Positions 27,372 through 64,000 of a stretch of 64,000 bases of DNA are shown here, piece after piece (within the stretch, counting starts at the first letter, position 1; each line of letters starts with the position of its first letter). Where the stretch lies: contig CAYSEV010000002.1 in NCBI GenBank assembly GCA_964430295.1, forward strand, positions 7,024 through 71,023, given 5' to 3'. The position numbers were made by a program, and so were the translations under genes. Under the pieces are notes generated by a model. That model was not told the origin of the DNA, made no database searches, and saw only the letters and a list, made by a program, of their open reading frames with translations. The DNA comes from an uncultured Gammaproteobacteria bacterium (GTDB taxonomy: Bacteria; Patescibacteriota; Microgenomatia; UBA10105; UBA927).

Positions 27372-29006
27372 ATGAAAAGATTTCTTCTTCTGGCAGGTAT
27401 TGTTATATTCGGATTGTTTATCCGCACGTATCACGTCGCAGAAAATCCTCCTTCTTTGTCTTGGGATGAAGTATCTATTGGGTATAACGCGTATAGTATC
27501 CTCAAAACAGGAAAAGATGAGCATGGCAGATTCCTTCCGCTTGATTCATTTATAGCGTATGGCGATTACAAACCCCCGCTTGCTATATATAGTGCCGTTC
27601 CATTTGTATTTCTATTCGGACTCACTGATTTGGCAGTGAGACTTCCTGCCGCTGTATTTGGGACACTCAGTATTCTTCTTACGTATTTTGTTGTTTTGGA
27701 ATTATTTTCTACATACTCACAAAAAAATAATATAGCGCTTCTATCATCAGCACTGCTCTCTATTTCACCCTGGCATGTGAACCTTTCACGCGGTGGGTTT
27801 GAAGCAAATGTCGCGTTATTTTTTGTGCTGCTTGGTGTTTGGTTCATTCTATCGTCACGCCATGTGAGGAGTAGATATATCTATATGTGGCTGCCATTTG
27901 TGGCTGCTATTTATACATTTAACAGTGCAAGGTATTTTGTACCTTTGCTGTCCATAGCATTATTACTTTATATCGCTCGGAATATTCAAAAACAATATAA
28001 ATTGTTTATTACCGGTGTAGCGATTGCAATTGTGTGTATGTTACCGATACTTCCACACCTCGTCTCAAAGGAAGCGCGGTTGCGGTTTGCGGAGGTAAAT
28101 ATATTTACGGATACATCTGTTATTACACAGGCGAATGAGCGCACATCACGTACGGGAAATTCGCTTCTATCTCTTCTGGTTAATAACAGAAGAGTGGGAT
28201 TTATCCGTAGTTATTTTATGCATTTCACAGATAACCTGCAGCCTGAATTTCTATTTATCAAGGGTGATGGTAATCCGAAATTTTCCGTACAGGATACGGG
28301 TGAACTCTATATAATAGAAGCGCCGCTTCTTCTCATAGGATTTTTCACTATGCTCTTAGCGTTTCCGACACAGGCAGCACTCCTTCTGTTCTGGCTCCTT
28401 GCCGCAATCGTCCCGGCGGCAACAGCACGGGAAACACCTCATGCACTTCGAATCCTTAATTCGTTGCCTACATGGCATATCTTCATAGCATTTGGAATTT
28501 TTACACTTGTTACCTCTATACATCGTAGACGTACGAAATTGGCACATGCAGCAGTGCTTCTTCTTTCATTGATATATATTTTTCAGGTTGGGTATTATCT
28601 GCATGAGTATTATGCACATTACCGGGTGGAGTATTCCGGTGAATGGCAATATGGATATAAACAAGCTATCCAAAAAATACTACCTATTCAACGAAACTAT
28701 TCCCATGTGGTCATAACCGATTCCATCGGAAGGCCATATATGTATACAGCCTTTTATACAAAAACTGACCCAATAGAATTTTTGCAGTCGAAGAAATCCT
28801 ATACTGACTCGGCCGGTTTTTATCATGTTGATGGGTTTGGGAAATATATATTTAAAGATGTACTGCCTACTGATCTTTCCGATCGTACATTGTATGTCTG
28901 GGATGCGACTGAAGTGCCTAAAGGGGTCAGAGTACTTGATACAGTAACATTGCTTAATGGCGTTGCTAAATTAGTCATATTTGATTCAGGAGATGTGGCA
29001 TTATGA
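27372..29006 (+). CDS. GT39 (PMT_2) membrane glycosyltransferase
   Basis: FIRTYHVAENPPSLSWDEVSIGYNAYSILKTGKDEHGRFLPL...YGDYKPPLAIY motifs. Confidence 0.75.
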   Translation: MKRFLLLAGIVIFGLFIRTYHVAENPPSLSWDEVSIGYNAYSILKTGKDEHGRFLPLDSFIAYGDYKPPLAIYSAVPFVFLFGLTDLAVRLPAAVFGTLSILLTYFVVLELFSTYSQKNNIALLSSALLSISPWHVNLSRGGFEANVALFFVLLGVWFILSSRHVRSRYIYMWLPFVAAIYTFNSARYFVPLLSIALLLYIARNIQKQYKLFITGVAIAIVCMLPILPHLVSKEARLRFAEVNIFTDTSVITQANERTSRTGNSLLSLLVNNRRVGFIRSYFMHFTDNLQPEFLFIKGDGNPKFSVQDTGELYIIEAPLLLIGFFTMLLAFPTQAALLLFWLLAAIVPAATARETPHALRILNSLPTWHIFIAFGIFTLVTSIHRRRTKLAHAAVLLLSLIYIFQVGYYLHEYYAHYRVEYSGEWQYGYKQAIQKILPIQRNYSHVVITDSIGRPYMYTAFYTKTDPIEFLQSKKSYTDSAGFYHVDGFGKYIFKDVLPTDLSDRTLYVWDATEVPKGVRVLDTVTLLNGVAKLVIFDSGDVAL

Positions 29007-30676
29007 AAAAACGTTCAATGATGTTTTGGATTATCCTCATAGTGTCTGCTGTGCTTCGTTTATATCAATTGGGTGCTGTCCCTATAAGCCCCGATTGGGA
29101 CGAAGCTGCTCTTGGATATAATGCGTATACACTTCTACATACAGGCAGGGATGAATATGGGACGAGGCTGCCAACATCTATACGGTCATTCGGGGATTAT
29201 AAGCCGCCGGTGTATGCATACATGGCGGTTCCATCTGTTGCGCTATTTGGACTCAATGTGTTTGCAGTTCGGCTTCCATCGGCAATCATGGGAATACTTG
29301 CTGTCGTTGGTGTGTTTTATTTGACTTTTGAGTTACTTGTTCTTGCAAAGAAACATACAGGGAGTAAAGAAATCATAGCGGTTCTTACGCAGTATCAGCG
29401 TCACATACCGCTATTTTCAATGGCTCTTCTTTCTATTTCACCATGGCATCTTCAATTCTCCCGTGTTGCATTTGAAGCAAATATTGGTCTGACGATTCAA
29501 ATATGGGCTATCACTATCTTTTTAATGAGTTTGAACAAACGTGTACTATTGCCTGTTTCCGCATTCTTATTTTCGTTAGGCATGTATGCGTATCATAGTG
29601 AACGTGTATTTTTACCACTTATGGGACTGCTTTTAGCAGCTCTATTTCGAAAAGAATTATTTGAAAAAAACCACATAAAATATACAGTATTCTCAATAGC
29701 TATTATTGCTGTCTGCCTTGTCCCACTCGTTCGCAGTATGACAGATGATGCAACCGTCGCGAGGCTCAAAGGAACAAGTTCATTTACAAATCAGGTAACC
29801 ATGCTGAATCGTTCCATTCATAAGCTCGAAGAGGATCAGAAAAATGGTAATAAACTGGGTGTATTGTTTGATAACAGACGATTTGTTTGGGTTCGTACAG
29901 TCGTGTCAGGATATTTGTCTCACTTTTCAGTACAGTGGCTGTTTTTAGCGGGAGATAATCCGAGGCATCATGCACCGAGTATGGGGATGATGTATCTATG
30001 GGAATTGCCATTCCTGCTTATTGGTATAGTCTTTTTACTCAATTATATTCATTGGCGCACGGCGGCTATCATCATCGGATGGATACTTATCGCACCAGTT
30101 GCAGCATCTGTAACTACCGGGTTGCCGCATGGGGTGAGAACTCTTACATTTCTGCCGACGTTTCAACTACTTGTTTCAATGGGACTTGTGTATACCTTGT
30201 ATCTCCTTAAAACATATTCATCTGCCATCCAAAAAATTGCCGGTGCGCTTGTGATTGTTTCAGTTGTCTATGGATGTATCTATTATTTCACCATGTACTA
30301 TGTCCACATGGATGCGGAGGTCTCTGAAGATTGGCAATATGGATACGCCCATGTTGTTGCGTATACCGAGGGGCATAAGAGTGCATACAAAAAAGTAGTT
30401 GTTTCAACTTCATTGGATCAGTCGTATATATTTTTCCTCTTTTATACGGCGTATAATCCATCATCATATCTCTCCCGCGGTGGAACAGGTGGTATATATG
30501 GGGGAGACGTTCGCGTTGCATTTGATAGATATGAATTCAGACCTATTCGTTGGGATAATGAAGTGAAGGATGGGAGTATATTATATGTAGGAGCACCAAA
30601 CGAGATCCCACATCCGAACATCAAAGAGTTTACATATCTAAACGGCAAAAAATCGTTTAGTATCGCGGATAGATAA
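29003..30676 (+). CDS. GT39 (PMT_2) membrane glycosyltransferase
   Basis: LYQLGAVPISPDWDEAALGYNAYTLLHTGRDEYGTRLP...FGDYKPPVYAY. ATGA overlap with the upstream gene. Confidence 0.75.
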   Translation: MKKRSMMFWIILIVSAVLRLYQLGAVPISPDWDEAALGYNAYTLLHTGRDEYGTRLPTSIRSFGDYKPPVYAYMAVPSVALFGLNVFAVRLPSAIMGILAVVGVFYLTFELLVLAKKHTGSKEIIAVLTQYQRHIPLFSMALLSISPWHLQFSRVAFEANIGLTIQIWAITIFLMSLNKRVLLPVSAFLFSLGMYAYHSERVFLPLMGLLLAALFRKELFEKNHIKYTVFSIAIIAVCLVPLVRSMTDDATVARLKGTSSFTNQVTMLNRSIHKLEEDQKNGNKLGVLFDNRRFVWVRTVVSGYLSHFSVQWLFLAGDNPRHHAPSMGMMYLWELPFLLIGIVFLLNYIHWRTAAIIIGWILIAPVAASVTTGLPHGVRTLTFLPTFQLLVSMGLVYTLYLLKTYSSAIQKIAGALVIVSVVYGCIYYFTMYYVHMDAEVSEDWQYGYAHVVAYTEGHKSAYKKVVVSTSLDQSYIFFLFYTAYNPSSYLSRGGTGGIYGGDVRVAFDRYEFRPIRWDNEVKDGSILYVGAPNEIPHPNIKEFTYLNGKKSFSIADR

Positions 30677-41783: not shown

Positions 41784-42908
41784 ATGAATATACTTCTTTT
41801 AAATTGGCGTGATGTATCGCACCCAAAATCCGGAGGAGCAGAGCTGGTAACAATGGAACATGCGAAAGGGTGGGTAAAAAAAGGCCATTCAGTAACCTGG
41901 GTTACGGCAGGCTATAATAATGCCAAAAAAAATGAAACCGTAGATGGAATCCGATTTGTACGAAGGATGGGCTCATTTTCTATTTATCTATATGTTCCGT
42001 TTTATGTATTATGGAACAGCTTCCAATTCGATGTGATTGTTGATGAAGTACATGGATTTCCTTTTTTTACTCCGCTTGTAACTAGAAAACCGATTGTCGT
42101 ATTTATACATGAAATAGCAGGAGAGATTTGGGATTTTATGTTCCCATTCCCGAAAAATAAAATAGGAAAGCTTCTTGAATATGCGTACTTCCATCTGTAT
42201 ACATCATGCATTTTTTGGACTGATGCCCCTTCCACCGTAAATGAGTTGATCAGTCGCGGCATTCCAAAAAACCGGTGTGTAGCAATACCTTGCCCAATTC
42301 CCAGAATGAATGCTTCCATTCTTGGTTTATTCAAAAAAAAGCCAGTCAAAGAAACGAACCCTACATATCTTTTTGTATCTAGAGTAGTTCGTATGAAAGG
42401 TGTGGAAGAAGTTATAAAGGCGTTTGCCTTCATATATTTGACCGATCCGACTTCTGTATTGTGGATTATCGGCAGTGGAGAAGCAACATATATCACCGAA
42501 CTTAAACAAATGATCTCAGAATACGGATTGACAAATAATGTTGTATTTTGGGGGAGTATTTCTGATACGGATAAATATTCACTCATGAGTAAATCACATA
42601 TTTTGCTTCACGCATCTGTAAAAGAAGGGTGGGGTTTAGTAGTCCTTGAAGCAGCGTATGCAGGTACCCCCTCTGTTGTATACAATGTTGGTGGTCTTCG
42701 GGATGTTGTTAAGCATGGCGAAACCGGAATTGTTGTTGATTCAAATTCTCCGAAAGAGATGGCGGAAAAGGCTATACAGCTATATAAAAATAAAAAACTA
42801 TATGCGAAAATGCAGATTTCAGGAAAAAAATGGGTACAATCTATAACGTGGACAAATGTGATTCAACGAAGTTTAAATATACTCAGGAATAGTATACAAT
42901 TTAGGTAA
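41784..42908 (+). CDS. GT4 (GT-B) glycosyltransferase
   Basis: MNILLLNWRDVSHPKSGGAELVTME and EGWGLVVLEAAYAGTPSVVYNVGGLRDVV motifs. Confidence 0.7.
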   Translation: MNILLLNWRDVSHPKSGGAELVTMEHAKGWVKKGHSVTWVTAGYNNAKKNETVDGIRFVRRMGSFSIYLYVPFYVLWNSFQFDVIVDEVHGFPFFTPLVTRKPIVVFIHEIAGEIWDFMFPFPKNKIGKLLEYAYFHLYTSCIFWTDAPSTVNELISRGIPKNRCVAIPCPIPRMNASILGLFKKKPVKETNPTYLFVSRVVRMKGVEEVIKAFAFIYLTDPTSVLWIIGSGEATYITELKQMISEYGLTNNVVFWGSISDTDKYSLMSKSHILLHASVKEGWGLVVLEAAYAGTPSVVYNVGGLRDVVKHGETGIVVDSNSPKEMAEKAIQLYKNKKLYAKMQISGKKWVQSITWTNVIQRSLNILRNSIQFR

Positions 42909-42912
42909 ATAT

Positions 42913-44037
42913 ATGAAACAAACCATAATCCCTTTTGTAGACCTCAAGACTCAATATATCGCACTGAAAAATGATATGGATTCTGCGATGCTTTCTGTGG
43001 TTGAAAACACCAGATTTATACAGGGAAGTGATGTACGCGATTTTGAGAATAATTTTTCCCAGTACCTTGGTGCGAAACACTGTATTGGAGTGAATTCAGG
43101 AACTGATGCACTTATACTTGGAATTCATGCCTTGGGTTTACAACAAGGGGATGAGGTTATAGTTCCTGTAAACACATTTATTGCAACAGCTTTAGGTGTT
43201 ACTGAAAACAACTTGAAACCTGTATTTGTTGATTCTGAAGAGAATGGGTACGGTATCTCTCTACAGGACCTGAAAAAAAAGATAACAAAGAAAACAAAAG
43301 CAATCATTGTGGTTCATTTATATGGAAGACCGGATAAATTGGATGAAATTGCACAAATCATAAAAGAATCAGGTCAACATATACACCTCATTGAGGATGC
43401 ATGCCAGGCTCATGGAGCAATCTATAAAGATAAAAGAGTTGGCACGTTTGGGATTTTTAGTGCCTTCTCTTTTTATCCGGGGAAAAACCTGGGAGCATAC
43501 GGTGATGGAGGTGCAATAGTCACGAATGATGACATTTTGGCACAAAAGTACCGTATGGCAAGGGAATATGGACAGAAAATCAAATATGTACATGAATCTC
43601 TTGGAGTAAATTCCAGACTTGATACAATTCAGGCAGCAGTGCTGAATGTTAAACTGCCACATCTAGACGAATGGAATACAAAGCGAAGAACTCTTGCATC
43701 ATATTATACTAAAGCCTTACAAAAGAACATTTCCGCAGTGAAAACTCCTTCAGATTCTCCTGATAGATCATCTGTATTTCATTTATATGTCATAGAAGTG
43801 GAGGATCGTGATAGCGTTCTGGAATATTTAAATTCAAATGGAATTCAGGCACTTATACACTATCCGGTCCCGTTGCATGTTCAAAAAGCCTTCTCATATC
43901 TGAATTATAAAACAGGTGATTTCCCGAATGCTGAAAAAAGCTCGGAACGTATACTTTCACTGCCATTATTCCCCGAGCTTCGCACGGATCAGATAGATAC
44001 AATCGTTTCTACACTATCAAAATTTTATGCAAGCTGA
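42913..44037 (+). CDS. DegT/DnrJ/EryC1/StrS-family PLP-dependent sugar aminotransferase (WbpE/WecE/PglE-like)
   Basis: FVDLKTQY...GVNSGTDALILG...LIEDACQAHGAIYKDKRVGTFG...SFYPGKNLGAYGDGGAIVTND, the canonical Lys-containing family core. Confidence 0.8.
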   Translation: MKQTIIPFVDLKTQYIALKNDMDSAMLSVVENTRFIQGSDVRDFENNFSQYLGAKHCIGVNSGTDALILGIHALGLQQGDEVIVPVNTFIATALGVTENNLKPVFVDSEENGYGISLQDLKKKITKKTKAIIVVHLYGRPDKLDEIAQIIKESGQHIHLIEDACQAHGAIYKDKRVGTFGIFSAFSFYPGKNLGAYGDGGAIVTNDDILAQKYRMAREYGQKIKYVHESLGVNSRLDTIQAAVLNVKLPHLDEWNTKRRTLASYYTKALQKNISAVKTPSDSPDRSSVFHLYVIEVEDRDSVLEYLNSNGIQALIHYPVPLHVQKAFSYLNYKTGDFPNAEKSSERILSLPLFPELRTDQIDTIVSTLSKFYAS

Positions 44038-44503
44038 TTTATTCCAAATCATTCGTGAATGCAAAATAGGTAAACGCACCAAAATGTGGGGATTTATTAA
44101 TCTGTATGGGTGTGAGATAGGTGATGATTGCCTGATTGGCACATTCGTTGAGATTCAAAATAACGTAAAAATAGGCAACAAAGTACGGGTGCAATCTCAT
44201 TCTTTTATATGCAGCGGTGTCAGTATTGAAGACGATGTTTTCATAGGACACCATGTGGTATTTATAAATGACAATTATCCGCATGCCGTAAATGCAAAAG
44301 GGGATCCCATTACACAGGATGATTGGGAATTACGGCCTGTTCAAATTAAAAAAGGAGCTACAATAGGATCAAATGCAACAATTTTGGGTGGTATAACTAT
44401 TGGTGAATATGCAATGGTTGGTGCCGGAAGTGTTGTAACAAAAGACGTTCCTGCGCATGCAGTTGTGTATGGAAATCCTGCAAAGATTAAGGAAAAAAAC
44501 TAA
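44027..44503 (+). CDS. Left-handed beta-helix (hexapeptide repeat) sugar N-acetyltransferase (WbpD/PglD-like)
   Basis: Imperfect hexapeptide repeats IGDDCLIGTFVEIQNNVKIGNKVRVQSHSFICSGVSIEDDVFIG...IGSNATILGGITIGEYAMVGAGSVV. Confidence 0.7.
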   Translation: MQADLFQIIRECKIGKRTKMWGFINLYGCEIGDDCLIGTFVEIQNNVKIGNKVRVQSHSFICSGVSIEDDVFIGHHVVFINDNYPHAVNAKGDPITQDDWELRPVQIKKGATIGSNATILGGITIGEYAMVGAGSVVTKDVPAHAVVYGNPAKIKEKN

Positions 44504-44504
44504 T

Positions 44505-45524
44505 ATGAAACACATTGGTATAGTCGGTTGGGGTTACTGGGGGAGGAATTACGCAAAATATTTTGATGCATACCTTGGTGCTGTATTGTCGCATGTATGT
44601 GATCTTCGACAGGATATGTTGGATGATGCAAAAAAACTATATCCTCATTTCATAACAACAACAAAGCTTCAGGATCTGATTGATGCCAAATTAGATGGGG
44701 TGATTATTGCCTCTCCTGCCAGTGCTCATTTCCCGATTGCGAAAGTCTTCCTGGAGGCGGGTATCCCCTTGCTGATAGAAAAACCACTGACAAATTCCAC
44801 GGAAACCTCTAAAGAACTTATGAAAATAGCTAAAAAAAATAAAACAAAAATATTGGTTGGTCATACGTTTATATATAATCAATCAGTGCGTTTTCTAAAA
44901 AACGAAATAGATGCAAACCGATTCGGAAAAATATATTATCTGGAGTTCCGTCGCCAAAGTTATGGTCCTGTCAGGGACGATGTGAATGTTATTTGGGATT
45001 TTGCTCCGCATGATGTTGCCATAGCACAGTATCTACTCGGAGGTATCTCTCCGATTTCTGTATCTGTCCAGAGTGGTATCTTTTCCCGACATAACAAAGA
45101 GGATATGGCGGTCATCGTATTGAAATATCCGGGTAATATTATGGTAAATATAAATGTCGGTTGGTTATATCCTATTAAAATACGTTCAGTCACACTATTG
45201 GGAGATAAACAAATGGCCGTTTTTGAAGATACAAATACAGCAGCTCCCATAAGTATTTACGATACAAGTCTTACTTATCCTAAAGAAGAAGATCCTTCAG
45301 GTGCATCTTTTCGGTTGGGGGAAATACGAATCCCCAGAATTCAGTCTGTAGATCCGCTTAAAACACAACTTCAGCATTTTATGGCGTACTTAGACGGAAA
45401 TGAAAATCCTCTGACACCAGTTGAAGATGGACTCACTATTGTGTCTATTCTTGAAGCGATGCAGGAATCTGTTAAAACAGGTAAGACGATAGATATGAAC
45501 GAATGGTTTGCTCATCATTCATAA
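44505..45524 (+). CDS. Gfo/Idh/MocA-family NAD(P)-dependent sugar oxidoreductase (WbpB-like)
   Basis: MKHIGIVGWGYWGRNYAKYF Rossmann N-terminus and EKPLTNS motif. Start at 44505, just after the upstream stop; the listed 44457 start is inside the upstream gene. Confidence 0.7.
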   Translation: MKHIGIVGWGYWGRNYAKYFDAYLGAVLSHVCDLRQDMLDDAKKLYPHFITTTKLQDLIDAKLDGVIIASPASAHFPIAKVFLEAGIPLLIEKPLTNSTETSKELMKIAKKNKTKILVGHTFIYNQSVRFLKNEIDANRFGKIYYLEFRRQSYGPVRDDVNVIWDFAPHDVAIAQYLLGGISPISVSVQSGIFSRHNKEDMAVIVLKYPGNIMVNINVGWLYPIKIRSVTLLGDKQMAVFEDTNTAAPISIYDTSLTYPKEEDPSGASFRLGEIRIPRIQSVDPLKTQLQHFMAYLDGNENPLTPVEDGLTIVSILEAMQESVKTGKTIDMNEWFAHHS

Positions 45525-46516
45525 TGAAACCTCCGATTCTGACTATAGTTACTCCGGTATATAATGCCGCCAAAGATCTTCCGAGATTTTTTTCTTCATT
45601 GAAAGAACAAACCTTGAAACGGTCAGATTATGAAATACTAATCATTGATGGAGGATCAACTGATTCAACAATTGAGATTTCACGGAACGCCAGAGCTCGA
45701 ATAATTCACAATCCTAAAAAATTAGCAGAACCGGGTGTTTCATTGGGTATACAGAATGCAAAATCAGATCTGATTATGGTTTTGGCGGTGGATAATATTT
45801 TTAAGCAATCAAATGCCTTAGAAACAATGTTAACAATTCTTCAAAATCCAAATATATCTGCTGTTTTTCCGAAACATGAATCTGCACCTGATGATTCCAT
45901 CTTTTCCAAGTACTTCAACACGTTTACAGACCCGTATACACATTTTGTGTATGGTTCAGCTTCAAACGGCAGAACATTTTCAAAGATCTATGCAACAAAA
46001 ATACACAATGAAACATATGATATTTTTGATTTTTCATCGTCAGATGTTTACCCACTCATTGCACTGGCACAGGGATTTTGCATCAAAAAAAAGGATTTAC
46101 CAAAACGGACAGATAGTGGAAATGATGATGTGCTGACAGTATATTCACTGTTGGATAAGGGGAAAAATATTGCGTTTGCACATAGTGTTTCACTGTTCCA
46201 TTTTACTATCCGGGATCTGGGAGATTTTATGAGAAAACAGAAACGGGCAGTAGAAAATGCGTTAGTTCGAAGAAACTCAGGTATCTACCAGCGGAAAAAA
46301 TATTTGACACGATATCAAAAACTGAAACAGTTGCTTTTTGTTCCATACGCAATCACAATTGTTGCTCCGACGATTAACTCAATTTATAATGCGGTAGTAA
46401 GCGGTAATGTAATATGGTTATTTCATGTTCCTATATCGTTTTTATCCGCTTGTGCGATCGTTTTTACAGTAGTGGAACTAAACATACATAAATTTTTTTA
46501 TGATAAAACTCATTAA
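45524..46516 (+). CDS. GT2 glycosyltransferase with C-terminal membrane anchor
   Basis: MKPPILTIVTPVYNAAKDLPRFFSSLKEQTLKRSDYEILIIDGGSTDST. TAATG overlap with the upstream gene. C-terminal hydrophobic helices paralogous to 54362. Confidence 0.7.
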   Translation: MKPPILTIVTPVYNAAKDLPRFFSSLKEQTLKRSDYEILIIDGGSTDSTIEISRNARARIIHNPKKLAEPGVSLGIQNAKSDLIMVLAVDNIFKQSNALETMLTILQNPNISAVFPKHESAPDDSIFSKYFNTFTDPYTHFVYGSASNGRTFSKIYATKIHNETYDIFDFSSSDVYPLIALAQGFCIKKKDLPKRTDSGNDDVLTVYSLLDKGKNIAFAHSVSLFHFTIRDLGDFMRKQKRAVENALVRRNSGIYQRKKYLTRYQKLKQLLFVPYAITIVAPTINSIYNAVVSGNVIWLFHVPISFLSACAIVFTVVELNIHKFFYDKTH

Positions 46517-47675
46517 ATCAACGTTCTTAGATGAAAAAAAGACTAAAAAAGCATTATGTGCTTTTATTACGAAGGCGGATACCCTTAGTATTGGAAAGGA
46601 ATGCAGGCTTTTTGAACATAATTTTGCTTCATGGCAAGAATCGAAGCACTGTATTTTTTTAAACAGTGGAAGTAGTGCAAATCTTGCCGTTATACAGGCA
46701 TTGTTGAACTTAGGGAGAATTCAAAAAGGCGACAATATAGGGTTTTCGGCACTTACATGGTCCACAAACGTAATGCCATTAATCCAATTAGGGTTAAACC
46801 CGATTCCCATAGATTGTGAACTCGATACGCTAAATGTGTCTTCCAGAACACTTACCACTGTGCTTAAGAAAACAAATATAAAAATGCTTTTTTTGACCAA
46901 TTTGCTTGGGTTTTGTGATGATATAGATGAGATAGCACGTATTTGCGATGAGGAGAAAATTCTTTTAGTTGAAGATAACTGTGAATCTTTAGGTACAGTC
47001 TATAAAGGTAAAAAACTGGGAAATTACGGATTAGCAAGTACGTTTTCGTTTTATGTGGGACATCATATGTCTACAATTGAAGGCGGAGCAATCTGCACAA
47101 ATGACACAGAATTGGAAACAATGATCCAATTGGTTCGTGCTCATGGTTGGGATCGTAACCTTACCGAAGATAAACAGCTTTCCATACGCACAAAACACCA
47201 TGTTAATGAAACATTCTATTCCAGATATACATTTTATGATTTGGGATACAATCTTCGAACAATGGAAATACAGGGATTTATCGGTAACACTCAGATTAAA
47301 TATCTGCCCATTATTATAGAAAAGAGGCAGGATAATTTCATGACGTTAGCCCGGCAGATTTATAAGAAAACCGATCTGTATTATCCGCTGCGATATACCC
47401 ACATTGACACAGTTTCCAATTTTGCAGTTCCGATTATTTGCAGATCACAAAAAATTCGAGATGAACTGGTCAAGAAATGTGATGGTTTAGTTGAAATCCG
47501 GCCTATTGTAGGTGGAGATATGACCAAGCAGCCATTCTATAGTAAATATATACAATCAAAAAAAGCTCCCTCAACCGTGAATGCCCATATAGCACATGAG
47601 CAGGGACTCTATTTTGGAAATAATCCTGAATTAACCAAAAAAGATTTGCGCACACTCCTTTCTATCTTTTCATGA
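46500..47675 (+). CDS. RfbH(DdhC)/ColD-like PMP-dependent nucleotide-sugar 3-dehydratase (DegT superfamily, His replaces the Schiff-base Lys)
   Basis: NSGSSANLAVIQALL matches the RfbH NSGSSANL block. FSFYVGHHMSTIEGGAI has His at the position where DegT aminotransferases have Lys, the hallmark of E1/ColD dehydratases. Confidence 0.6.
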   Translation: MIKLIKSTFLDEKKTKKALCAFITKADTLSIGKECRLFEHNFASWQESKHCIFLNSGSSANLAVIQALLNLGRIQKGDNIGFSALTWSTNVMPLIQLGLNPIPIDCELDTLNVSSRTLTTVLKKTNIKMLFLTNLLGFCDDIDEIARICDEEKILLVEDNCESLGTVYKGKKLGNYGLASTFSFYVGHHMSTIEGGAICTNDTELETMIQLVRAHGWDRNLTEDKQLSIRTKHHVNETFYSRYTFYDLGYNLRTMEIQGFIGNTQIKYLPIIIEKRQDNFMTLARQIYKKTDLYYPLRYTHIDTVSNFAVPIICRSQKIRDELVKKCDGLVEIRPIVGGDMTKQPFYSKYIQSKKAPSTVNAHIAHEQGLYFGNNPELTKKDLRTLLSIFS

Positions 47676-47688
47676 TAGAAACGTATTT

Positions 47689-48735
47689 ATGAAAGATTCT
47701 TTGGTTTCAATTATCATAGTAAATTGGAACGGTCTGCGCTGGCTTCCTGAGTGTTTTTCATCTTTATACGCACAAGAGTATAAGAATTTTGAAATTATAT
47801 TCGTTGATAACGCTTCCCACGACGAATCTGTAGTGTGGGTAAAAAAACATTTTCCTAAAACAAGAATAATTATAAACAGTCAAAATCTTGGGTTTGCAGA
47901 GGCCAATAATGTAGGATACAGAGAATCCAGGGGTGAATATGTGCTTTTTCTCAATAATGACACTCGGGTGACAAAAACGTTTCTTAAAGAATTATTAGCC
48001 AAATTCAAAGATCTCACAATTGGCGGTGCTCAAAGTAAAATTTTGCTTATGGATCATCCTGATACGCATGACAGTGTCGGCGCCTATATGACACCTACCG
48101 GATTTTTATATCATTTGGGTTTTGGGAAAAAAGATTCCCCTGTATATGACAAAGATATTGAGCTCTATACCGCAAAGGGTGCGTGTATGATCTTTAGAAG
48201 CAGTGTCCTAAAAAAGATCGAATATAATGGTTGGGTGCTGGATCCTGCTTATTTTGCATATTTTGAAGAATCTGATATGTGCCATAGAGTTTGGTTATCA
48301 GGATCGAGGATAGTGTATGCGCATAAATCCGTGATTTACCATAAAATGGGTGCTACAAGTAGTAGCATGAATAATGCCTTTATTCAGTATCATTCATTTA
48401 AAAATAGAATAAATTCATATCTTAAAAATATGGAAATGAAATGGTTAATACTGTATATCCCTATTCACATTCTTTTGGTGTTATGTTTTGCGGTATTTTC
48501 ACTTTTTCAAAAAAAATGGCAGTTGGGTATGGCAATTTTTAAGGCAATATGGTGGAATATTCGCACACTTCCAAGAACAGTTTGTCTGAGAACATATATA
48601 CAAAATAACATCCGTATTATTTCAGATGATACACTGCGACCAAAAATATTTAGGTCACCGGGGTTTGACTATTATAGACATCTGATTTCAGGAACTCTGG
48701 TTGAATATAAAGAAAATCCTGATATGATAGTCTGA
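47689..48735 (+). CDS. GT2 glycosyltransferase
   Basis: VSIIIVNWNGLRWLPECFSSLYAQEYKNFEIIFVDNASHDES...LNNDT motifs; C-terminal TM helix. Confidence 0.7.
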   Translation: MKDSLVSIIIVNWNGLRWLPECFSSLYAQEYKNFEIIFVDNASHDESVVWVKKHFPKTRIIINSQNLGFAEANNVGYRESRGEYVLFLNNDTRVTKTFLKELLAKFKDLTIGGAQSKILLMDHPDTHDSVGAYMTPTGFLYHLGFGKKDSPVYDKDIELYTAKGACMIFRSSVLKKIEYNGWVLDPAYFAYFEESDMCHRVWLSGSRIVYAHKSVIYHKMGATSSSMNNAFIQYHSFKNRINSYLKNMEMKWLILYIPIHILLVLCFAVFSLFQKKWQLGMAIFKAIWWNIRTLPRTVCLRTYIQNNIRIISDDTLRPKIFRSPGFDYYRHLISGTLVEYKENPDMIV

Positions 48736-48736
48736 T

Positions 48737-49519
48737 ATGAAATCCTCGGATCTGTCTATATTATTTATTTCATGCGATAAATATAGTGATTTATGGAAGC
48801 CATTATTTCAATGTGTGGATGAACAGTGGCCAGATTGTCCGTACCCCATGTATCTAGGAAGTAACACTAAGAAATTTATTCACAAAAAACTCAAAACAGT
48901 ATTAAGTGGTCCAGATAGTGATTGGTCTTCGAGTCTTAAACGACAGTTATCTCAATTATCATCGACGTATGTATTTCTGTGGCTCGACGATATGTTTCCG
49001 ATAGAAAAAATAGATACACAACAATTTACTGAGATAGTCGAGTTCATGAAAAAAACATCAGCCAGGCATATACACATGGTTCCAAACCCTTCACCGGATA
49101 GGACCGTTGAGCAGGGAACATATGGTATGTACGAAAAAGGTGCGCCATATAGGGCTACAGCGCTTGGTTTTTGGAATGTAGAATATTTGAAGTCAATCCT
49201 GATAGATGGTGAAAACCCCTGGAATTTTGAAATATTAGGGTCGTATAGGACGAGATATAGTGACGGTTTTTATTGTCTAATGAAACCATTATTTAACAGG
49301 TTGCATGTGGTGGAAAAAGGGAAAATTTTTTCTGAGGCTGCTGATTATTGTCGTACTCATTCAATACCGCTTGACATACAGAGCCGTAAAATTCTTCAAA
49401 GTGGTAATTTTGTTAAAAGCGAATTGCAGAAATTATATTTTAATACCATTATAAAAATACCATGGAAATACAGAGTAAGAGCCATGAATACGCTTAGAAA
49501 ACTGTTTATCAGCTACTAA
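48737..49519 (+). CDS. Hypothetical protein (possible GT-A-like nucleotide-sugar transferase)
   Basis: 260 aa soluble protein. FLWLDDMFP could be a DxD-like motif. No confident family assignment. Confidence 0.35.
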   Translation: MKSSDLSILFISCDKYSDLWKPLFQCVDEQWPDCPYPMYLGSNTKKFIHKKLKTVLSGPDSDWSSSLKRQLSQLSSTYVFLWLDDMFPIEKIDTQQFTEIVEFMKKTSARHIHMVPNPSPDRTVEQGTYGMYEKGAPYRATALGFWNVEYLKSILIDGENPWNFEILGSYRTRYSDGFYCLMKPLFNRLHVVEKGKIFSEAADYCRTHSIPLDIQSRKILQSGNFVKSELQKLYFNTIIKIPWKYRVRAMNTLRKLFISY

Positions 49520-49520
49520 A

Positions 49521-50504
49521 ATGGATACAGATATATTTTGGAAACATAAAAAAGTACTGGTGACTGGAGGAACCGGTTTTATCGGTAGTCATCTGGTGGA
49601 AAAACTACTGGATGCAGGAGCTCAAGTTCGCGTGCTTGACAGGATGTCATCCGGAAAAATTCGTCACATTGGATATTTAGAAAATTCAGTAGAGTTTATA
49701 AAGGGGGATTGTTCGAACTCCGATGATGCAGTGCGAGCATGTAAAGGTATTGATGTTGTTATGAATCTTGCCGCTAAAGTAGGCGGTATTGAATATAACA
49801 TGTCTCACCAGGCAGATATGTTGGCGGAAAATATGGCAATCTCATCAACCATGATCGCATCTGCGCAGAAAGCGGGAGTGGATCGATATTTAGTAGTATC
49901 GTCCGCTTGTGTGTACCCGCATGACGCAAAGATTCCAACACCTGAATCCGAAGGAATGCGCAGTGAGCCTGAACCTACAAATAGCGGGTACGGCTGGGCA
50001 AAAAGATTTAGTGAAATCGAGGGTCAGCTGTATTCAAAGCAATATGGCATGAAGGTTGCGATAGCCAGACCTTATAACGCCTATGGGCCGAGAGATGATT
50101 TTAATCCTGCCACATCACATGTGATTCCTGCATTAATACGAAGGGTTATGAGTAACGAAGACCCGGTCATAGTGTGGGGAAGCGGAAAACAATCACGGGC
50201 ATTTCTTTATGTGGAAGACTTTGCAAAAGGTCTTATGCTGATGATAGAAAAATATACAAATGCGGACCCGGTAAATATTGGATCAGATGAAGAGGTGACA
50301 ATAAAAGATTTGATTGAGATGATAGTAAGCTTATCCGGTAAGAAAAAAACAATTATGTATGACACATCGAAACCTGATGGAAGTCCCAGAAGAAATAGTG
50401 ATAATACAAAAGCACAGGTATGTACAGGATTTTCAGCTTCGACACCTCTGAGGGTGGGGTTACAAAAAACCATTGAATGGTATAACGCTTCGTTTCATAT
50501 ATAA
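49521..50504 (+). CDS. Fcl/ColC-like NAD(P)-dependent nucleotide-sugar epimerase/reductase (GDP-L-fucose synthase family, SDR)
   Basis: VLVTGGTGFIGSH Rossmann. NLAAKVGGIEYN, SSACVYP, YGWAK (YxxxK) and ARPYNAYGPRDDF blocks match GDP-fucose synthase / GDP-colitose synthase. Confidence 0.65.
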   Translation: MDTDIFWKHKKVLVTGGTGFIGSHLVEKLLDAGAQVRVLDRMSSGKIRHIGYLENSVEFIKGDCSNSDDAVRACKGIDVVMNLAAKVGGIEYNMSHQADMLAENMAISSTMIASAQKAGVDRYLVVSSACVYPHDAKIPTPESEGMRSEPEPTNSGYGWAKRFSEIEGQLYSKQYGMKVAIARPYNAYGPRDDFNPATSHVIPALIRRVMSNEDPVIVWGSGKQSRAFLYVEDFAKGLMLMIEKYTNADPVNIGSDEEVTIKDLIEMIVSLSGKKKTIMYDTSKPDGSPRRNSDNTKAQVCTGFSASTPLRVGLQKTIEWYNASFHI

Positions 50505-50513
50505 ATATATACT

Positions 50514-51593
50514 GTGGTAAAAAAAATAACGCATCACTCTGTAGATTTTTCTGTAGTAATTCCCACATATAATCGAAGTGAGTTTTTGAAATCAGCAATC
50601 TTATCTGTATTGCGGCAACGGGGAGTAAAGTTGGAAATTGTCATATGTGATGACGCCTCTACTGACGAAACCGGAACAATAGTTCGATCATTTAAAGATG
50701 GAAGAATTAAGTATTATAGAAATTCTACGCGCCGCGGGACGTCGATGAATTTTCTAAACTGTTTTAAATATGCAAGAGGAAACTATATTTTTAATTTGGG
50801 AGACGATGATCTGATATTGGATGATACTACACTTCTGCGAGTGCTGAGGACAATGAAACAAACCGGATCGGGTATGGGTAAAATTGGGACGATTACATAT
50901 GAACGTTCTGTTTTTTATCCGTATCAGGTATCCGCTTTAAGCGAAAAACCGTTTCAAGTATCTCCTAAATCCAAACAAAATATTTTGATAGATACTATTC
51001 CTTTCGGATTGGGCTTTTATTCAGGGCTAATATTCAACAACAAATTGGTAAACAAATCATATCTTATTATGGATCATGTTTGTTTCCCTGATCATATGTG
51101 TCATTCTTACCATAAGATTGCATATGATCTCATTCTTAAAAGGGGGATTATTTATATTCCAAATGAATTTATACTTTCTCATTTGAGTGTGGATTTAATC
51201 CCGCGATATTTTAATATAGAAAAGCATGGACGTATATATTGGGAAGATCCTATAAATGAAGCAAAATCATTTTTGTCAGATAAAGATTTTGCCTCATATG
51301 CTCGTGCATATACCAGATCTCAACTTGTGATGCTTCCAAATATAAAATATTTTACATCGTATGCTGTTTATGTTCGCACACTTAAAAAAATAATTCAGAA
51401 TGATCTGACTCTTATATACTATCCGTATTTTATTATTTGGGCGATCGCAGGCCTTTTGCCAAAAACGATGATAGGATTTATGAGAAAAATAAAAAACCGG
51501 ATGTCGATGTATTCAACCAAGAGGCAATTAGAGAATATTCACTATGGTGAGAAAATCAGAAAACTACTCACTGCTATTTCTAAAGATAGCTGA
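50514..51593 (+). CDS. GT2 glycosyltransferase
   Basis: FSVVIPTYNRSEFLKSAILSVLRQRGVKLEIVICDDASTDET...GDDD motifs. Confidence 0.7.
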   Translation: MVKKITHHSVDFSVVIPTYNRSEFLKSAILSVLRQRGVKLEIVICDDASTDETGTIVRSFKDGRIKYYRNSTRRGTSMNFLNCFKYARGNYIFNLGDDDLILDDTTLLRVLRTMKQTGSGMGKIGTITYERSVFYPYQVSALSEKPFQVSPKSKQNILIDTIPFGLGFYSGLIFNNKLVNKSYLIMDHVCFPDHMCHSYHKIAYDLILKRGIIYIPNEFILSHLSVDLIPRYFNIEKHGRIYWEDPINEAKSFLSDKDFASYARAYTRSQLVMLPNIKYFTSYAVYVRTLKKIIQNDLTLIYYPYFIIWAIAGLLPKTMIGFMRKIKNRMSMYSTKRQLENIHYGEKIRKLLTAISKDS

Positions 51594-51594
51594 A

Positions 51595-52320
51595 TTAATG
51601 TTTCAGCATTTTATCTATTCCTGAAAAGTCAATCAGATTTAGTATCTGTTCTCTATTCTTAACAAAATAATTCCAATCTAAGCTATTGTAATGAACTTTT
51701 TTTAGTATTTTCTTCTGTTTTCTTTTTTGAAGTACCGAGCAACAAAATCCTTTTACTGTAAAAACTCTTATATCCTGCCTATTCATTCGTATATTTGCCA
51801 CAGATTTCCAGACGTCACCGTTGTATGCTTTTCCTACCAGTGATGTTGTATGTGAAGCGTTATGAGGGTAGGAAATACTTTTAAGATATGATAGTGTCTG
51901 CTCGATATCAATCTCACAGGCTTCCTTGGTTGGTGGATCTGTGTCATGAAGGACTATATATCCACCTTTCTTTAATATCTTGAAAGCCTCATCAATTTCG
52001 TTATCAACGATTAGTGATAGATGTGCCGCATCTATGAATATGACATCATAAGATTTATGAAAAAAAAGTTTATTTAGGGCAAAAAACATTTGAGATGTCA
52101 TCCTGTATGTAACATCATATGTTCCATATGGATCAACACCATCTTTCATGGGACTGTTGATTTTTTTATATGTTCTTCCCTGATCAACCCCGATTTCCAA
52201 GTAAGAGGTTGGTTTATGGAAGGTAGAAAGAAGATGATTACAAAGTATTGCCTGTTCTGTTACATATTGATCTGTCAAAAAATAGTATTTTTCTTTTATT
52301 AATTTAAAAATATTGTTCAT
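51595..52320 (-). CDS. Class I SAM-dependent methyltransferase (CmcI/Methyltransf_24-like, probable sugar O-methyltransferase)
   Basis: YLEIGVDQG, VIFIDAAH and GGYIVLHDT blocks. It is the only minus-strand gene in the distal locus and ends 1 nt from the convergent upstream stop. Confidence 0.55.
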   Translation of the reverse strand: MNNIFKLIKEKYYFLTDQYVTEQAILCNHLLSTFHKPTSYLEIGVDQGRTYKKINSPMKDGVDPYGTYDVTYRMTSQMFFALNKLFFHKSYDVIFIDAAHLSLIVDNEIDEAFKILKKGGYIVLHDTDPPTKEACEIDIEQTLSYLKSISYPHNASHTTSLVGKAYNGDVWKSVANIRMNRQDIRVFTVKGFCCSVLQKRKQKKILKKVHYNSLDWNYFVKNREQILNLIDFSGIDKMLKH

Positions 52321-52423: not shown

Positions 52424-53551
52424 ATGAAACAAAGAATAATATATTTATTTATCGGAACGACCGCTGAACTTATTAAACTTGTTCCTGTTATCCGCGAATT
52501 CAAAAAACGTAAGATAACATTTACTATTATAGCCACCGGCCAAAATGATATAAGGTTCGAAGAATATGCCCGGATAATCAAGGGAGTAAGGATTTTGAAA
52601 GCCGTTACTCCAAAAAGTAAGGATTCATCTGTGTGGTCGTTCTTTATATGGGCTGTTCGCACATTTTTTTCTCTTCTTCTGGGAATGAGGTCTAACTTCA
52701 AAGGCCTAAATAAATCTAATTCCTACTTTATCATTCACGGTGATACAGTGTCCTCACTGATGGGATCACTTGTGGCATCATTGTATGGATTAAAACTTGT
52801 ACATATAGAATCAGGATTACGCTCATTTCATTTTTTTGAACCGTTTCCTGAAGAGATATCTCGGTATATTGTCTCACGACTGGCAGATATACATTTTTGC
52901 CCAAATGAATGGAGTGTCAAAAATCTTTCCTCGTATAAGGGAGATAAAGTAAATACCCACCAAAATACGCTGATTGAGGCTTTTTACAATGCAATGGAAC
53001 AAAAAATTAAAAATAATCAGATACATAAACTCATTCGAAAAAAACGAAAATATTTTGTCATGGTTATACACCGTCAGGAACATGTTTCTTTCGGATCGAA
53101 ATCAATGTATCCGATCCTCAGTCACATTTTTGCGCAAATTCCGGAAAATTTAGATTGTATTTTTTTGCTGCATGATCAGTCCAGAAATTTTATTAATATG
53201 TTTCAAATGATAATTCCTAAAGAAAAGATTAAGCGAATTATACGGATTGGAAGGCTTCCGTATACAGATTTTATGCATCTGTTACACAAATCGGAGTTTA
53301 TGATTACTGATGGGGGAAGTAATCAAGAGGAAATGTATTACATGGGCAAACCGTGTCTGCTGATCCGGAAATATACAGAGAGAATCGAAGGTCTAAAAGA
53401 AAACGTTATTTTAAGCAAGAACTCCAAAGAAATTACTTCGTCATTTATATCAAATTATAAATTTTTTGTGCGAAAACCTATTAGGATTAAAAAAGCTCCA
53501 TCAAAAATTATAGTGGATTACCTATTATCATATGACGAAATATCAGGGTAA
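52424..53551 (+). CDS. UDP-N-acetylglucosamine 2-epimerase family (Epimerase_2/WecB-like) protein, divergent
   Basis: IIYLFIGTTAELIKLVPVIREF resembles the WecB N-terminus (GTRPEAIKMAPL). FMITDGGSNQEEMYYMGKPCLLIRKYTER matches the TDSGG.QEE...GKP.L..R..TER block. Confidence 0.55.
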   Translation: MKQRIIYLFIGTTAELIKLVPVIREFKKRKITFTIIATGQNDIRFEEYARIIKGVRILKAVTPKSKDSSVWSFFIWAVRTFFSLLLGMRSNFKGLNKSNSYFIIHGDTVSSLMGSLVASLYGLKLVHIESGLRSFHFFEPFPEEISRYIVSRLADIHFCPNEWSVKNLSSYKGDKVNTHQNTLIEAFYNAMEQKIKNNQIHKLIRKKRKYFVMVIHRQEHVSFGSKSMYPILSHIFAQIPENLDCIFLLHDQSRNFINMFQMIIPKEKIKRIIRIGRLPYTDFMHLLHKSEFMITDGGSNQEEMYYMGKPCLLIRKYTERIEGLKENVILSKNSKEITSSFISNYKFFVRKPIRIKKAPSKIIVDYLLSYDEISG

Positions 53552-54263
53552 ATATTCTCTTTTAGACTGGGACAGTAAACTGTTCGGATATTCTGTAGCT
53601 AAAATACCGGAGACCATATCTGGCGCAGATGTATATGAAGTCATAGAATATCTAAGGAAAAAGCGGGTAAAACTAATCTATATCATAGGAAATCCATCAG
53701 ATAAAGGGCGTAATGCTGTAATTGCAAAGCTTGGAGGAAAACTGGTTGATATAAAACGGGTTTATTCCAGAAATATAGATATGTTTGAAGGTGAGAAATC
53801 GGATTTTCCTCAGATTTCTCCATATACGGATACGAAGGTGAATATCACGTTGCGCAAACTAGCATATCAAAGTGGAATCCACTCGAGATTTTTTATAGAC
53901 ACCAAATTTACGCATAACGAATACCGTAAATTGTACACAAAATGGATCGAAAAAGCAGTGCTCGGAATTAATGCATTTGAGGTGCTTGTATACAGAGATG
54001 AAGAGGGTGTAATAGGCGGATTTATAACTTTGGAGAAGGAAGGGACATCAGGAAAAGTCGGATTATTGGCTGTAGATCATACACTACGTCGTAAAAAAAT
54101 TGGATCAAAACTCCTTATGCGTTCATTTGATTCCTTTAGATCACACGGACTTAAACGTATGAGTATTACGACCCAAAAATCGAACGACCCTGCATGCCGA
54201 CTCTATGAAAAACACGGTTTTCATATCGTGTCTGAACAATATATATATCATCTCTGGCTATAA
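53532..54263 (+). CDS. GNAT-family N-acetyltransferase (WecD/TDP-fucosamine acetyltransferase-like two-domain layout)
   Basis: C-terminal VGLLAVDHTLRRKKIGSKLLMRSF...RLYEKHGF, a GNAT motif A/B arrangement. Confidence 0.55.
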   Translation: MTKYQGKYSLLDWDSKLFGYSVAKIPETISGADVYEVIEYLRKKRVKLIYIIGNPSDKGRNAVIAKLGGKLVDIKRVYSRNIDMFEGEKSDFPQISPYTDTKVNITLRKLAYQSGIHSRFFIDTKFTHNEYRKLYTKWIEKAVLGINAFEVLVYRDEEGVIGGFITLEKEGTSGKVGLLAVDHTLRRKKIGSKLLMRSFDSFRSHGLKRMSITTQKSNDPACRLYEKHGFHIVSEQYIYHLWL

Positions 54264-63886: not shown

Positions 63887-63909
63887 GCAATCAACATAGA
63901 GGAGTTTGT

Positions 63910-64000
63910 GTGGTGACTGGGGGATCAGGTTTTATTGGTTCGCATTTATGTGCTGCACTCCTCAAAGATTCTTATAGTGTTATATGTCTGGATAATCTCG
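63910..64000 (+). CDS. NAD-dependent nucleotide-sugar epimerase/dehydratase (SDR), 5' fragment that continues beyond the window
   Basis: GTG start 6 nt after a GAGGAG Shine-Dalgarno. [30 protein letters not shown] is a classic GxxGxxG Rossmann N-terminus of UDP-sugar 4-epimerase/decarboxylase enzymes. Confidence 0.55.

Follow-up and report, generated by a model that had tools for sequence, protein, structure and literature searches.

A stretch of 64,000 nucleotides on contig CAYSEV010000002.1 (the window; the term denotes the whole stretch analyzed) contains a gene at 46500-47675 for a DegT-family protein with histidine where aminotransferases have the Schiff-base lysine, and a second at 49521-50504 for an extended short-chain dehydrogenase/reductase (SDR). 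A sequence-only reading of this DNA had proposed that the two belong to a 3,6-dideoxyhexose branch, raising the questions of whether they are a 3-dehydratase and its reductase, whether they work together, and on which nucleotide-linked sugar. The analysis indicates that they are probably the finishing module of a nucleoside diphosphate (NDP)-3,6-dideoxyhexose branch, most likely GDP-colitose-like, within a surface-glycan operon. The first gene and its sites are as follows.

46500-47675, + strand: putative ColD-type, pyridoxamine 5'-phosphate (PMP)-dependent NDP-4-keto-6-deoxyhexose 3-dehydratase of the DegT family, 391 amino acids (aa) (Pfam, PDB, BLAST, Foldseek)
46662-46685, + strand: NSGSSANL block, residues 55 to 62, Gly/Ser-rich loop, SSGSTANL in ColD (alignment)
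46971-46994, + strand: EDNCESLG, E158 to G165 (ColD counterpart EDNCESMG)
47058-47075, + strand: GHHMST, residues 187 to 192 (sequence)
47061-47063, + strand: codon of His188, predicted catalytic base in place of the Schiff-base Lys (aligned to ColD His188)

The protein matched PF01041 (DegT/DnrJ/EryC1, fold type I) with an E value of 2.4e-57. Using phmmer against the PDB, ColD was found to be the top match (2gms; 1.8e-55, 191.6 bits), followed by E1 (3bcx; 1.3e-39, 139.4 bits) and 9wvy, a putative NDP-4-keto-6-deoxyglucose 3-dehydratase (113.1 bits), with true aminotransferases ranking below. The genuine ColD of Escherichia coli O55, whose colC-colD pair was located by a search with a back-translated ColD sequence, shared 33% identity with the window protein (E value of 4e-60). 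An AlphaFold2 model was built from 19 close homologs (predicted local distance difference test [pLDDT] score of 71.4) and served for fold ranking only; its 12 best Foldseek matches were all ColD chains, with template modeling (TM) scores of 0.78 to 0.80, and E1 appeared at rank 16.

Both motifs on which the sequence-only reading had relied in this protein, NSGSSANL and GHHMST, are present. Across 19 relatives, N55 to A60 and L62 were invariant and N61 was nearly so. G187-H188-H189 aligned with S187-H188-H189 of ColD, and His188 also occupied the column of E1 His220. As the ColD mutant entries H188N, H188K, and S187N/H188K (3b8x, 2r0t, and 3gr9) depart from the wild type exactly there, they locate the Schiff-base column. 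In one MAFFT alignment, His188 was found in 82 of 82 family members, and a DegT aminotransferase encoded three genes upstream (42913-44037), serving as an internal control, had Lys in this column; the claimed loss of the lysine was thus borne out. The same 82 members all carried E158, D159, C161, E162, and G165, as does ColD in EDNCESMG; Asp159 is presumably the usual partner of the pyridine nitrogen. Tyr185 (E1 Tyr217) and Glu162 (E1 Asp194) were also retained, and RAHGWDRNL in the window protein corresponds to RAHGWTRNL in ColD.

The protein had been described as ColD/RfbH-like, of which the ColD part stands and the RfbH part does not. In an alignment with E1, the Cys-rich insertion DCYCAPGCDNTC had no counterpart in the window protein, which reads RAHGWDRNLTEDKQL in this region and so resembles ColD (RAHGWTRNLPKKNKV). 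From the four-Cys [2Fe-2S] motif of E1/RfbH, Cys161 alone was kept (the equivalent of E1 Cys193), and this residue is found in ColD too. Assignment to the E1/RfbH type was rejected because the Fe-S cysteines are absent; the score with the RfbH equivalog model (213 bits, cutoff of 423) likewise does not fit that type. The protein is best read as a ColD-type, PMP-dependent, Fe-S-independent 3-dehydratase.

Two results weigh against that assignment: the protein scored 213 bits against the RfbH equivalog model (NF011936), below the cutoff of 423, and the AlphaFold2 model was of moderate quality, with low confidence near the active-site loops. The score, together with the presence of Gly187 in place of ColD Ser187 (in 80 of the 82 family members), could be taken to mean that this is not a 3-dehydratase at all but an aminotransferase that has degenerated, or a PMP enzyme catalyzing another reaction. 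The substitution counts for little, as Ser187 of ColD is reported not to be conserved among characterized dehydratases (bioRxiv 10.1101/2021.09.04.459008). Moreover, when each species was represented by one genome, scanning returned at least 565 stretches with relatives of the dehydratase, and in the best 80 of these, mostly from Patescibacteria genomes and analyzed as loci L001 onward, the protein was 59 to 83% identical to that of the window; this conservation and the invariant His-His pair speak against decay. The gmd and reductase genes found near relatives also suit a dehydratase, and we regard a protein of any other function as extremely improbable.

The second gene and its sites are as follows.

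49521-50504, + strand: extended SDR of the Fcl/ColC/GME clade ("Type I"), putative NDP-4-keto-3,6-dideoxyhexose 5-epimerase/4-reductase, 327 aa (NCBIfam, PDB, BLAST)
49638-49640, + strand: Asp40 at the end of beta-2 (VLDR), NAD(H)-type Rossmann signature (alignment of 35 SDRs plus Fcl)
49902-49910, + strand: Ser128-Ala129-Cys130, catalytic Ser and predicted epimerization Cys (aligned to Fcl and ColC)
49989-50003, + strand: Tyr157-x3-Lys161 (YGWAK), SDR catalytic pair (aligned to Fcl and ColC)
50118-50120, + strand: His200 in TSHVIPAL, predicted epimerization acid/base (NSHVIPAL in Fcl, SSHMIPAV in ColC)

This protein matched PF01370 with an E value of 1.1e-62, and its best NCBIfam model was GDP-L-fucose synthase (NF047922; 214.5 bits, versus 111.1 for GalE). 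The top 17 matches in a sequence search of the PDB were all GDP-fucose synthases or GDP-mannose 3,5-epimerases (GME); the alignment with Fcl (7ll6, 1.2e-51) covered residues 77 to 315, and that with GME (8sg0, 1.7e-42) was full length. Identity to ColC of E. coli O55 (WP_000698393.1) was 27% (E value of 9e-37). Identity to E. coli Fcl was 38% across 262 residues; the PDB matches do not depend on the Fcl sequence used for this value and for the Fcl alignment. For the two proteins of the window, E values of 1e-47 to 1e-55 argue for true homology rather than chance motif matches. The motifs AAKVGGI, YGWAK, and PYNAYGPRDDF cited in the sequence-only reading were all found, and the GxxGxxG glycines are present as G16, G19, and G22. 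Ser128, Cys130, Tyr157, Lys161, and His200 aligned with Ser107, Cys109, Tyr136, Lys140, and His179 in the numbering of E. coli Fcl (GMER), and with their counterparts in ColC.

By these comparisons the SDR is placed in the Fcl/ColC/GME clade and not with GalE, so that its earlier description as Fcl/ColC-like holds as to clade. It does not hold in the sense of an orthodox member. A 17-residue insert, missing in Fcl and ColC, follows Asp40, the alignment with Fcl begins only at residues 73 to 77, and the short NADPH-type N-terminal Rossmann segment of Fcl and ColC is absent. As in SDRs generally, Asp40 would signal a preference for NAD(H), and NADH is therefore the predicted cofactor. Homologs of the Type I subfamily are numerous at 61 to 81% identity, the named ones being from Patescibacteria, and the window protein is assigned by its sequence to a distinct NAD-type Fcl/GME-hybrid subfamily. 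Two Type I SDRs, at L008:11184-12158 and L010:11226-12275, have Val in place of the epimerization Cys (SSAVVYP), from which reduction without C5 epimerization, and hence a different sugar, would be predicted in those lineages.

Several features of the SDR and its setting count against the proposed module. The N terminus is of the NAD type as in GME, unlike that of Fcl or ColC, and the score of 214.5 bits lies below the NF047922 cutoff of 500; in about half of the related loci the dehydratase gene lacks a nearby SDR gene, and in the window the two genes are set apart by one glycosyltransferase family 2 (GT2) gene and the gene for a 260-aa protein, itself probably a glycosyltransferase. On this basis the SDR could be a GME-like, redox-neutral epimerase that holds NAD+ tightly and acts on another sugar, with the product of the dehydratase reduced by an enzyme encoded elsewhere. 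Asp40 with an extended N terminus is typical of NAD+-retaining SDRs, GME aligns along the full length whereas Fcl aligns over residues 77 to 315 only, and the C-terminal RRNSDN resembles GME. However, the SDR has His at the position of Fcl His179, the second acid/base position, at which GME has Lys. Within the scanned portion of the window (defined below) it also stands alone as an SDR, so that no other reductase is at hand.

The arrangement of the genes in relatives also speaks for a pair. All open reading frames (ORFs) of the 80 loci were clustered, SDRs were classed with local hidden Markov models, and pairing was counted in the 65 loci whose flanks extended 4 kb or more to either side. An Fcl-like SDR was encoded within 4 kb of the dehydratase in 28 of these 65 loci and directly downstream, on the same strand and at a distance of 0 to 60 nucleotides (nt), in 14 of them. 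Type I SDR genes lay immediately downstream of the dehydratase gene (0 to 47 nt) in many loci. The partner differs by lineage: Microgenomates-like loci have a Type I SDR, Parcubacteria-like loci a canonical short Fcl, and L049 an Fcl close to that of E. coli. Three Fcl subtypes in the same position suggest that function, rather than shared ancestry, lies behind the arrangement. The order of the window, dehydratase-GT2-GT-A (c65)-SDR, recurs in L002 and L059, and in E. coli O55 colC and colD adjoin with a 4-nt overlap. When 1.84 billion representatives were searched exhaustively, 644 clusters were obtained at E values up to 1e-30, among which were fusions of Gmd to a ColD-like protein (P0325), of Fcl-like to ColD-like proteins (P0316 and P0382), and of a short SDR to a His-type DegT protein (P0245, 54% identity); many uncharacterized relatives, at 40 to 49% identity, were nearer to the window dehydratase than ColD is. 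Conserved adjacency in many genomes and the fusion proteins support the predicted functional partnership of the dehydratase and the SDR, in agreement with the pairing first proposed, and we judge it very improbable that the two are unrelated in function.

Relatives of the dehydratase probably occur in several hundred genomes, mostly of Patescibacteria. A 3,6-dideoxyhexose module had been thought unexpected in this kind of organism; the 59 to 83% identity in the best 80 of at least 565 stretches contradicts that expectation. Some of these loci have the dehydratase gene with no SDR gene within 4 kb. This was observed in the context u29-dehydratase-GT2-like-GT4-HexAcT (L036, L037, L040, L042, L046, L060, and L077) and in a Saccharibacteria block with GT4 genes (L012, L015, L019, L022, L027, L028, L034, and L041), several loci of which carry gmd and an Rmd-like SDR gene 6 to 9 kb from the dehydratase gene. 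Inteins were identified in the dehydratase homologs P0244, P0288, P0291, and P0312. That of P0244 splits the EDNC|E motif, and the other three, with LAGLIDADG domains, split the protein just past approximately residue 192, near the catalytic His.

As to the nucleotide, GDP is the likely carrier. In relatives, gmd (TIGR01472, 518.9 bits, cutoff of 415) preceded the dehydratase gene by 4 to 17 nt in L055 and L066 and by approximately 1 kb in L079, adjoined it downstream in L035, and lay 6.6 to 9 kb from it in Saccharibacteria loci; the Gmd fusion P0325 points the same way. When Gmd-linked dehydratases were compared as a group with RfbF-linked ones, 166 fixed columns were common to both and 1 fixed difference was seen, which argues for one substrate across the family. 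The closest characterized relatives of both enzymes act on GDP-sugars.

Against GDP stand several results from the window and its nearest relatives. No gmd, manC, or 4,6-dehydratase gene was found in the 64 kb: a Pfam scan of ORFs of at least 150 aa, other than ORF 29003-30676, returned no NTP_transferase and no 4,6-dehydratase, and tblastn of the window with Gmd, RfbF-like transferase, and 4,6-dehydratase queries gave nothing further, so that the absence of Gmd and ManC noted in the sequence-only reading was confirmed within this scope. L002 and L059, which are the closest loci, likewise had none of these genes within 10 kb, and the window dehydratase fell in a neighbor-joining clade (L001 to L011) without gmd within 10 kb. 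Several loci of this clade instead carry, 6 to 8 kb downstream, a gene for an RfbF-like nucleotidyltransferase (TIGR02623, 281.8 bits, cutoff of 300.25) and one for an SDR with SSDKAYG, in which the SDK motif is typical of CDP-glucose 4,6-dehydratase; the same two genes, again with no gmd within 10 kb, occur further afield, for instance in L020 and L021. RfbF clusters also include an SDR similar by its motifs (STNKVYG, SPYGCSKG) to CDP-tyvelose 2-epimerase (RfbE).

These loci raise the alternative that the same chemistry takes place on CDP- (or other NDP-) 4-keto-6-deoxy-D-glucose, made by the RfbF-like transferase and the CDP-glucose 4,6-dehydratase-like SDR, to give an ascarylose-, paratose-, or tyvelose-type sugar. 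A further point in its favor is an SDR gene (SDR11B, described below) directly upstream of the dehydratase gene, where gmd sits elsewhere. To our knowledge, only the E1/E3 system is known on this scaffold, and Fe-S-free deoxygenation of the ColD type would be new there. The GDP specificity of the closest characterized relatives and the single fixed difference against 166 shared columns speak against a CDP-linked substrate. In addition, the RfbF-like gene may serve another sugar or nucleotide, since elsewhere it is followed by UXS-like and UDP-glucose dehydrogenase genes, and in L049 RfbF and a 4,6-dehydratase are encoded nearby, yet a near-canonical Fcl gene adjoins the dehydratase gene. A CDP-linked substrate is accordingly held to be unlikely, though less so than either of the alternatives considered for the enzymes themselves.

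The SDR cluster found directly upstream of the dehydratase gene in many relatives (SDR11), which has no member in the window, was considered as a plain CDP-glucose 4,6-dehydratase. This was rejected, as the cluster splits in two: SSDKAYG copies lie beside the RfbF-like gene, and copies adjoining the dehydratase gene have STSHVYG and an NADP-like GLSR. The latter (SDR11B; L006:9064-9999, L007:9049-9990, L017:9054-9995, and others) take the place that gmd has in other lineages, and they carry His at the position of the Glu of Gmd and UXS, with GLSR past beta-2; they may be divergent 4,6-dehydratases or reductases. In an SDR subfamily that is encoded beside the dehydratase-SDR pair and resembles CDP-tyvelose 2-epimerase, Phe replaces the catalytic Tyr (SVFGVSK; L006:13041-14087, L007:12132-13205, L013, L020, L021, and L074), and a sister subtype has kept SPYGCSKG (L006:5904-6926, L009, L032, and L058).

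With GDP as the preferred carrier, the substrate would most likely be GDP-4-keto-6-deoxy-D-mannose from a Gmd encoded beyond the window. Following the mechanism given in a review (PMC8987622), the PMP of the dehydratase would form a Schiff base (PMP-ketimine) with the NDP-4-keto-6-deoxyhexose, His188 would take the C4' proton of PMP, and the 3-OH would depart; hydrolysis would free the NDP-4-keto-3,6-dideoxyhexose and ammonia, with glutamate restoring PMP. The SDR would then epimerize C5 via Cys130 and His200 and reduce C4 via Ser128, Tyr157, Lys161, and NAD(P)H, predicted to be NADH. The product would be GDP-L-colitose (3-deoxy-L-fucose) if the substrate is derived from GDP-mannose, or a stereoisomer. 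The candidates for adding the sugar to a glycan are the products of three interleaved genes, as follows.

47689-48735, + strand: GT2 glycosyltransferase, between dehydratase and SDR (PF00535, 1.1e-25)
48737-49519, + strand: 260-aa protein without family annotation, GT-A fold (AlphaFold2 and Foldseek)
50514-51593, + strand: GT2 glycosyltransferase, last in the co-directional block (PF00535, 2.2e-27)

For the 260-aa protein, no Pfam or NCBIfam match was obtained even at E values up to 5. It has 367 homologs, the named ones mostly from Patescibacteria and the others from Lutibacter, Thiobacillus, and Deltaproteobacteria. Using Foldseek, its AlphaFold2 model (pLDDT of 88.5) was matched in the PDB to GT-A enzymes (B4GALNT1, TarP, and WrtF) with TM scores of 0.44 to 0.54; WrtF, which is GDP-fucose dependent, is of similar size, with a TM score of about 0.45 to 0.54. 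The protein thus probably represents an unannotated glycosyltransferase family.

A wider proposal, which we regard as doubtful, is that Patescibacteria share an unrecognized envelope 3,6-dideoxy-L-hexose, made by a highly conserved, Fe-S-free ColD-type dehydratase and a new NAD-type Fcl/GME-hybrid reductase subfamily, with a CDP-linked substrate in the Microgenomates lineage of the window or with a 4-keto precursor from outside the cluster or from a host, as suggested for the endosymbiont "Candidatus Organicella" (below). If true, the CDP-linked case would be ColD chemistry on the E1 scaffold.

The window as a whole is a very large glycan-biosynthesis island of approximately 34 to 42% G+C with almost all genes on the + strand. 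Its products include dozens of glycosyltransferases of families GT2 and GT4, as well as flippases and membrane proteins of the YfhO, PMT_2, and PTPS_related families. As the named homologs of its proteins are from Microgenomates and other Patescibacteria, the source is taken to be a bacterium of the candidate phyla radiation (CPR). The genes from 41784 to 51593 are all co-directional, with intergenic gaps of -47 to +13 nt, and a terminator-like hairpin at 51589-51607, between convergent genes, closes the block. Promoter-like sites were fewer than in shuffled sequences, and the block-end hairpin was the one informative outcome of scanning for promoters and terminators.

Other genes of the island were also noted. 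The genes at 42913-45524, for the Lys-intact DegT aminotransferase, a hexapeptide acetyltransferase, and a GFO/IDH/MocA oxidoreductase whose best match is an archaeal UDP-GlcNAc 3-dehydrogenase (NF040723, 142 bits, below cutoff), seem to form an independent route to a GlcNAc3NAc-type 3-acetamido sugar. A UDP-GlcNAc 2-epimerase-family gene followed by a GNAT acetyltransferase gene (52424-54263) may be a further sugar-modifying branch. A gene for a GmrSD-type (type IV) restriction endonuclease lies amid the glycan genes at 12870-14474. The start of a second extended-SDR gene, at 63907-64000, is cut by the window end and is too short to classify; its best local match was a UXS/ArnA-like cluster, so that a dehydratase or a decarboxylase is possible.

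CPR bacteria are mostly uncultured and host attached and have tiny genomes; their surface glycans are probably central to attachment. In Gram-negative pathogens, 3,6-dideoxyhexoses are strongly immunodominant. A search of the literature found no paper linking Patescibacteria or the CPR to colitose or dideoxyhexoses, and some annotation pipelines already label homologs of the two proteins as "CDP-6-deoxy-D-xylo-4-hexulose-3-dehydrase" and "GDP-L-fucose synthase." There is no novelty in the chemistry as such; the main addition is the wide distribution and unusually strong conservation of the module in the CPR, where it appears to be common though unreported. A colitose-like 3,6-dideoxyhexose is thereby predicted as a specific surface-glycan component of CPR bacteria. 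The proteins of the module mostly carry generic labels in these genomes, and the two families that accompany it, the Fcl/GME-hybrid SDR subfamily and the unannotated GT-A family, could be of use in glyco-engineering and genome annotation.

Among known systems, a likeness in gene content only is seen with "Candidatus Organicella extenuata," a reduced-genome endosymbiont of the Verrucomicrobia that keeps ColD and ColC without the upstream enzymes, and for which the authors infer exogenous precursors (PMC8204192). Both it and the window organism have small genomes with a gene pair of the ColD/ColC type, although they belong to different phyla. E1 (AscC/DdhC/RfbH, CDP-6-deoxy-L-threo-D-glycero-4-hexulose 3-dehydrase; PDB 3BCX) and SpnQ have His for Lys and would share the logic of C-3 deoxygenation with the window dehydratase. 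The latter differs from E1 in the absence of the [2Fe-2S] Cys insertion, in having no E3-type reductase encoded nearby, and in the weaker score (139 bits). E1 and SpnQ carry a [2Fe-2S] cluster and require a second enzyme, a reductase, whereas ColD has no such cluster and recycles PMP with glutamate (PMC8987622).

For the SDR, GME (PDB 2C59 and 8SG0) aligns along its full length, including the NAD-type N terminus, but scores lower than Fcl, and the SDR has His, not Lys, at the second acid/base position. Fcl (WcaG/GMER, GDP-L-fucose synthase; PDB 1BWS and 7LL6) is the best-scoring family, with all five catalytic residues kept; the SDR differs in scoring below the equivalog cutoff and in its N-terminal 76 residues, which do not align. 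ColC of E. coli O55, a GDP-L-colitose synthase annotated in the GDP-L-fucose synthase family, differs in its low identity and its short Fcl-type N terminus, compared with Asp40 and the 17-residue insert of the SDR. It falls in the same SDR clade, its Ser/Cys, YxxxK, and SH(V/M)IPA motifs align, and its gene lies beside one of the ColD type. ColD itself (WbdK, the GDP-4-keto-6-deoxy-D-mannose 3-dehydratase of E. coli O55/O111 and Yersinia; PDB 2GMS and 3B8X) is only 33% identical to the window dehydratase and has Ser187 where the latter has Gly187, and the window cluster differs in having no gmd or manC and in the two glycosyltransferase genes between dehydratase and SDR. The two dehydratases nevertheless share the DegT fold, the His188 column, the EDNCESxG and RAHGW(D/T)RNL motifs, the absence of an Fe-S motif, and a similar length (391 versus 388 aa), and each is paired with an SDR of the Fcl family.

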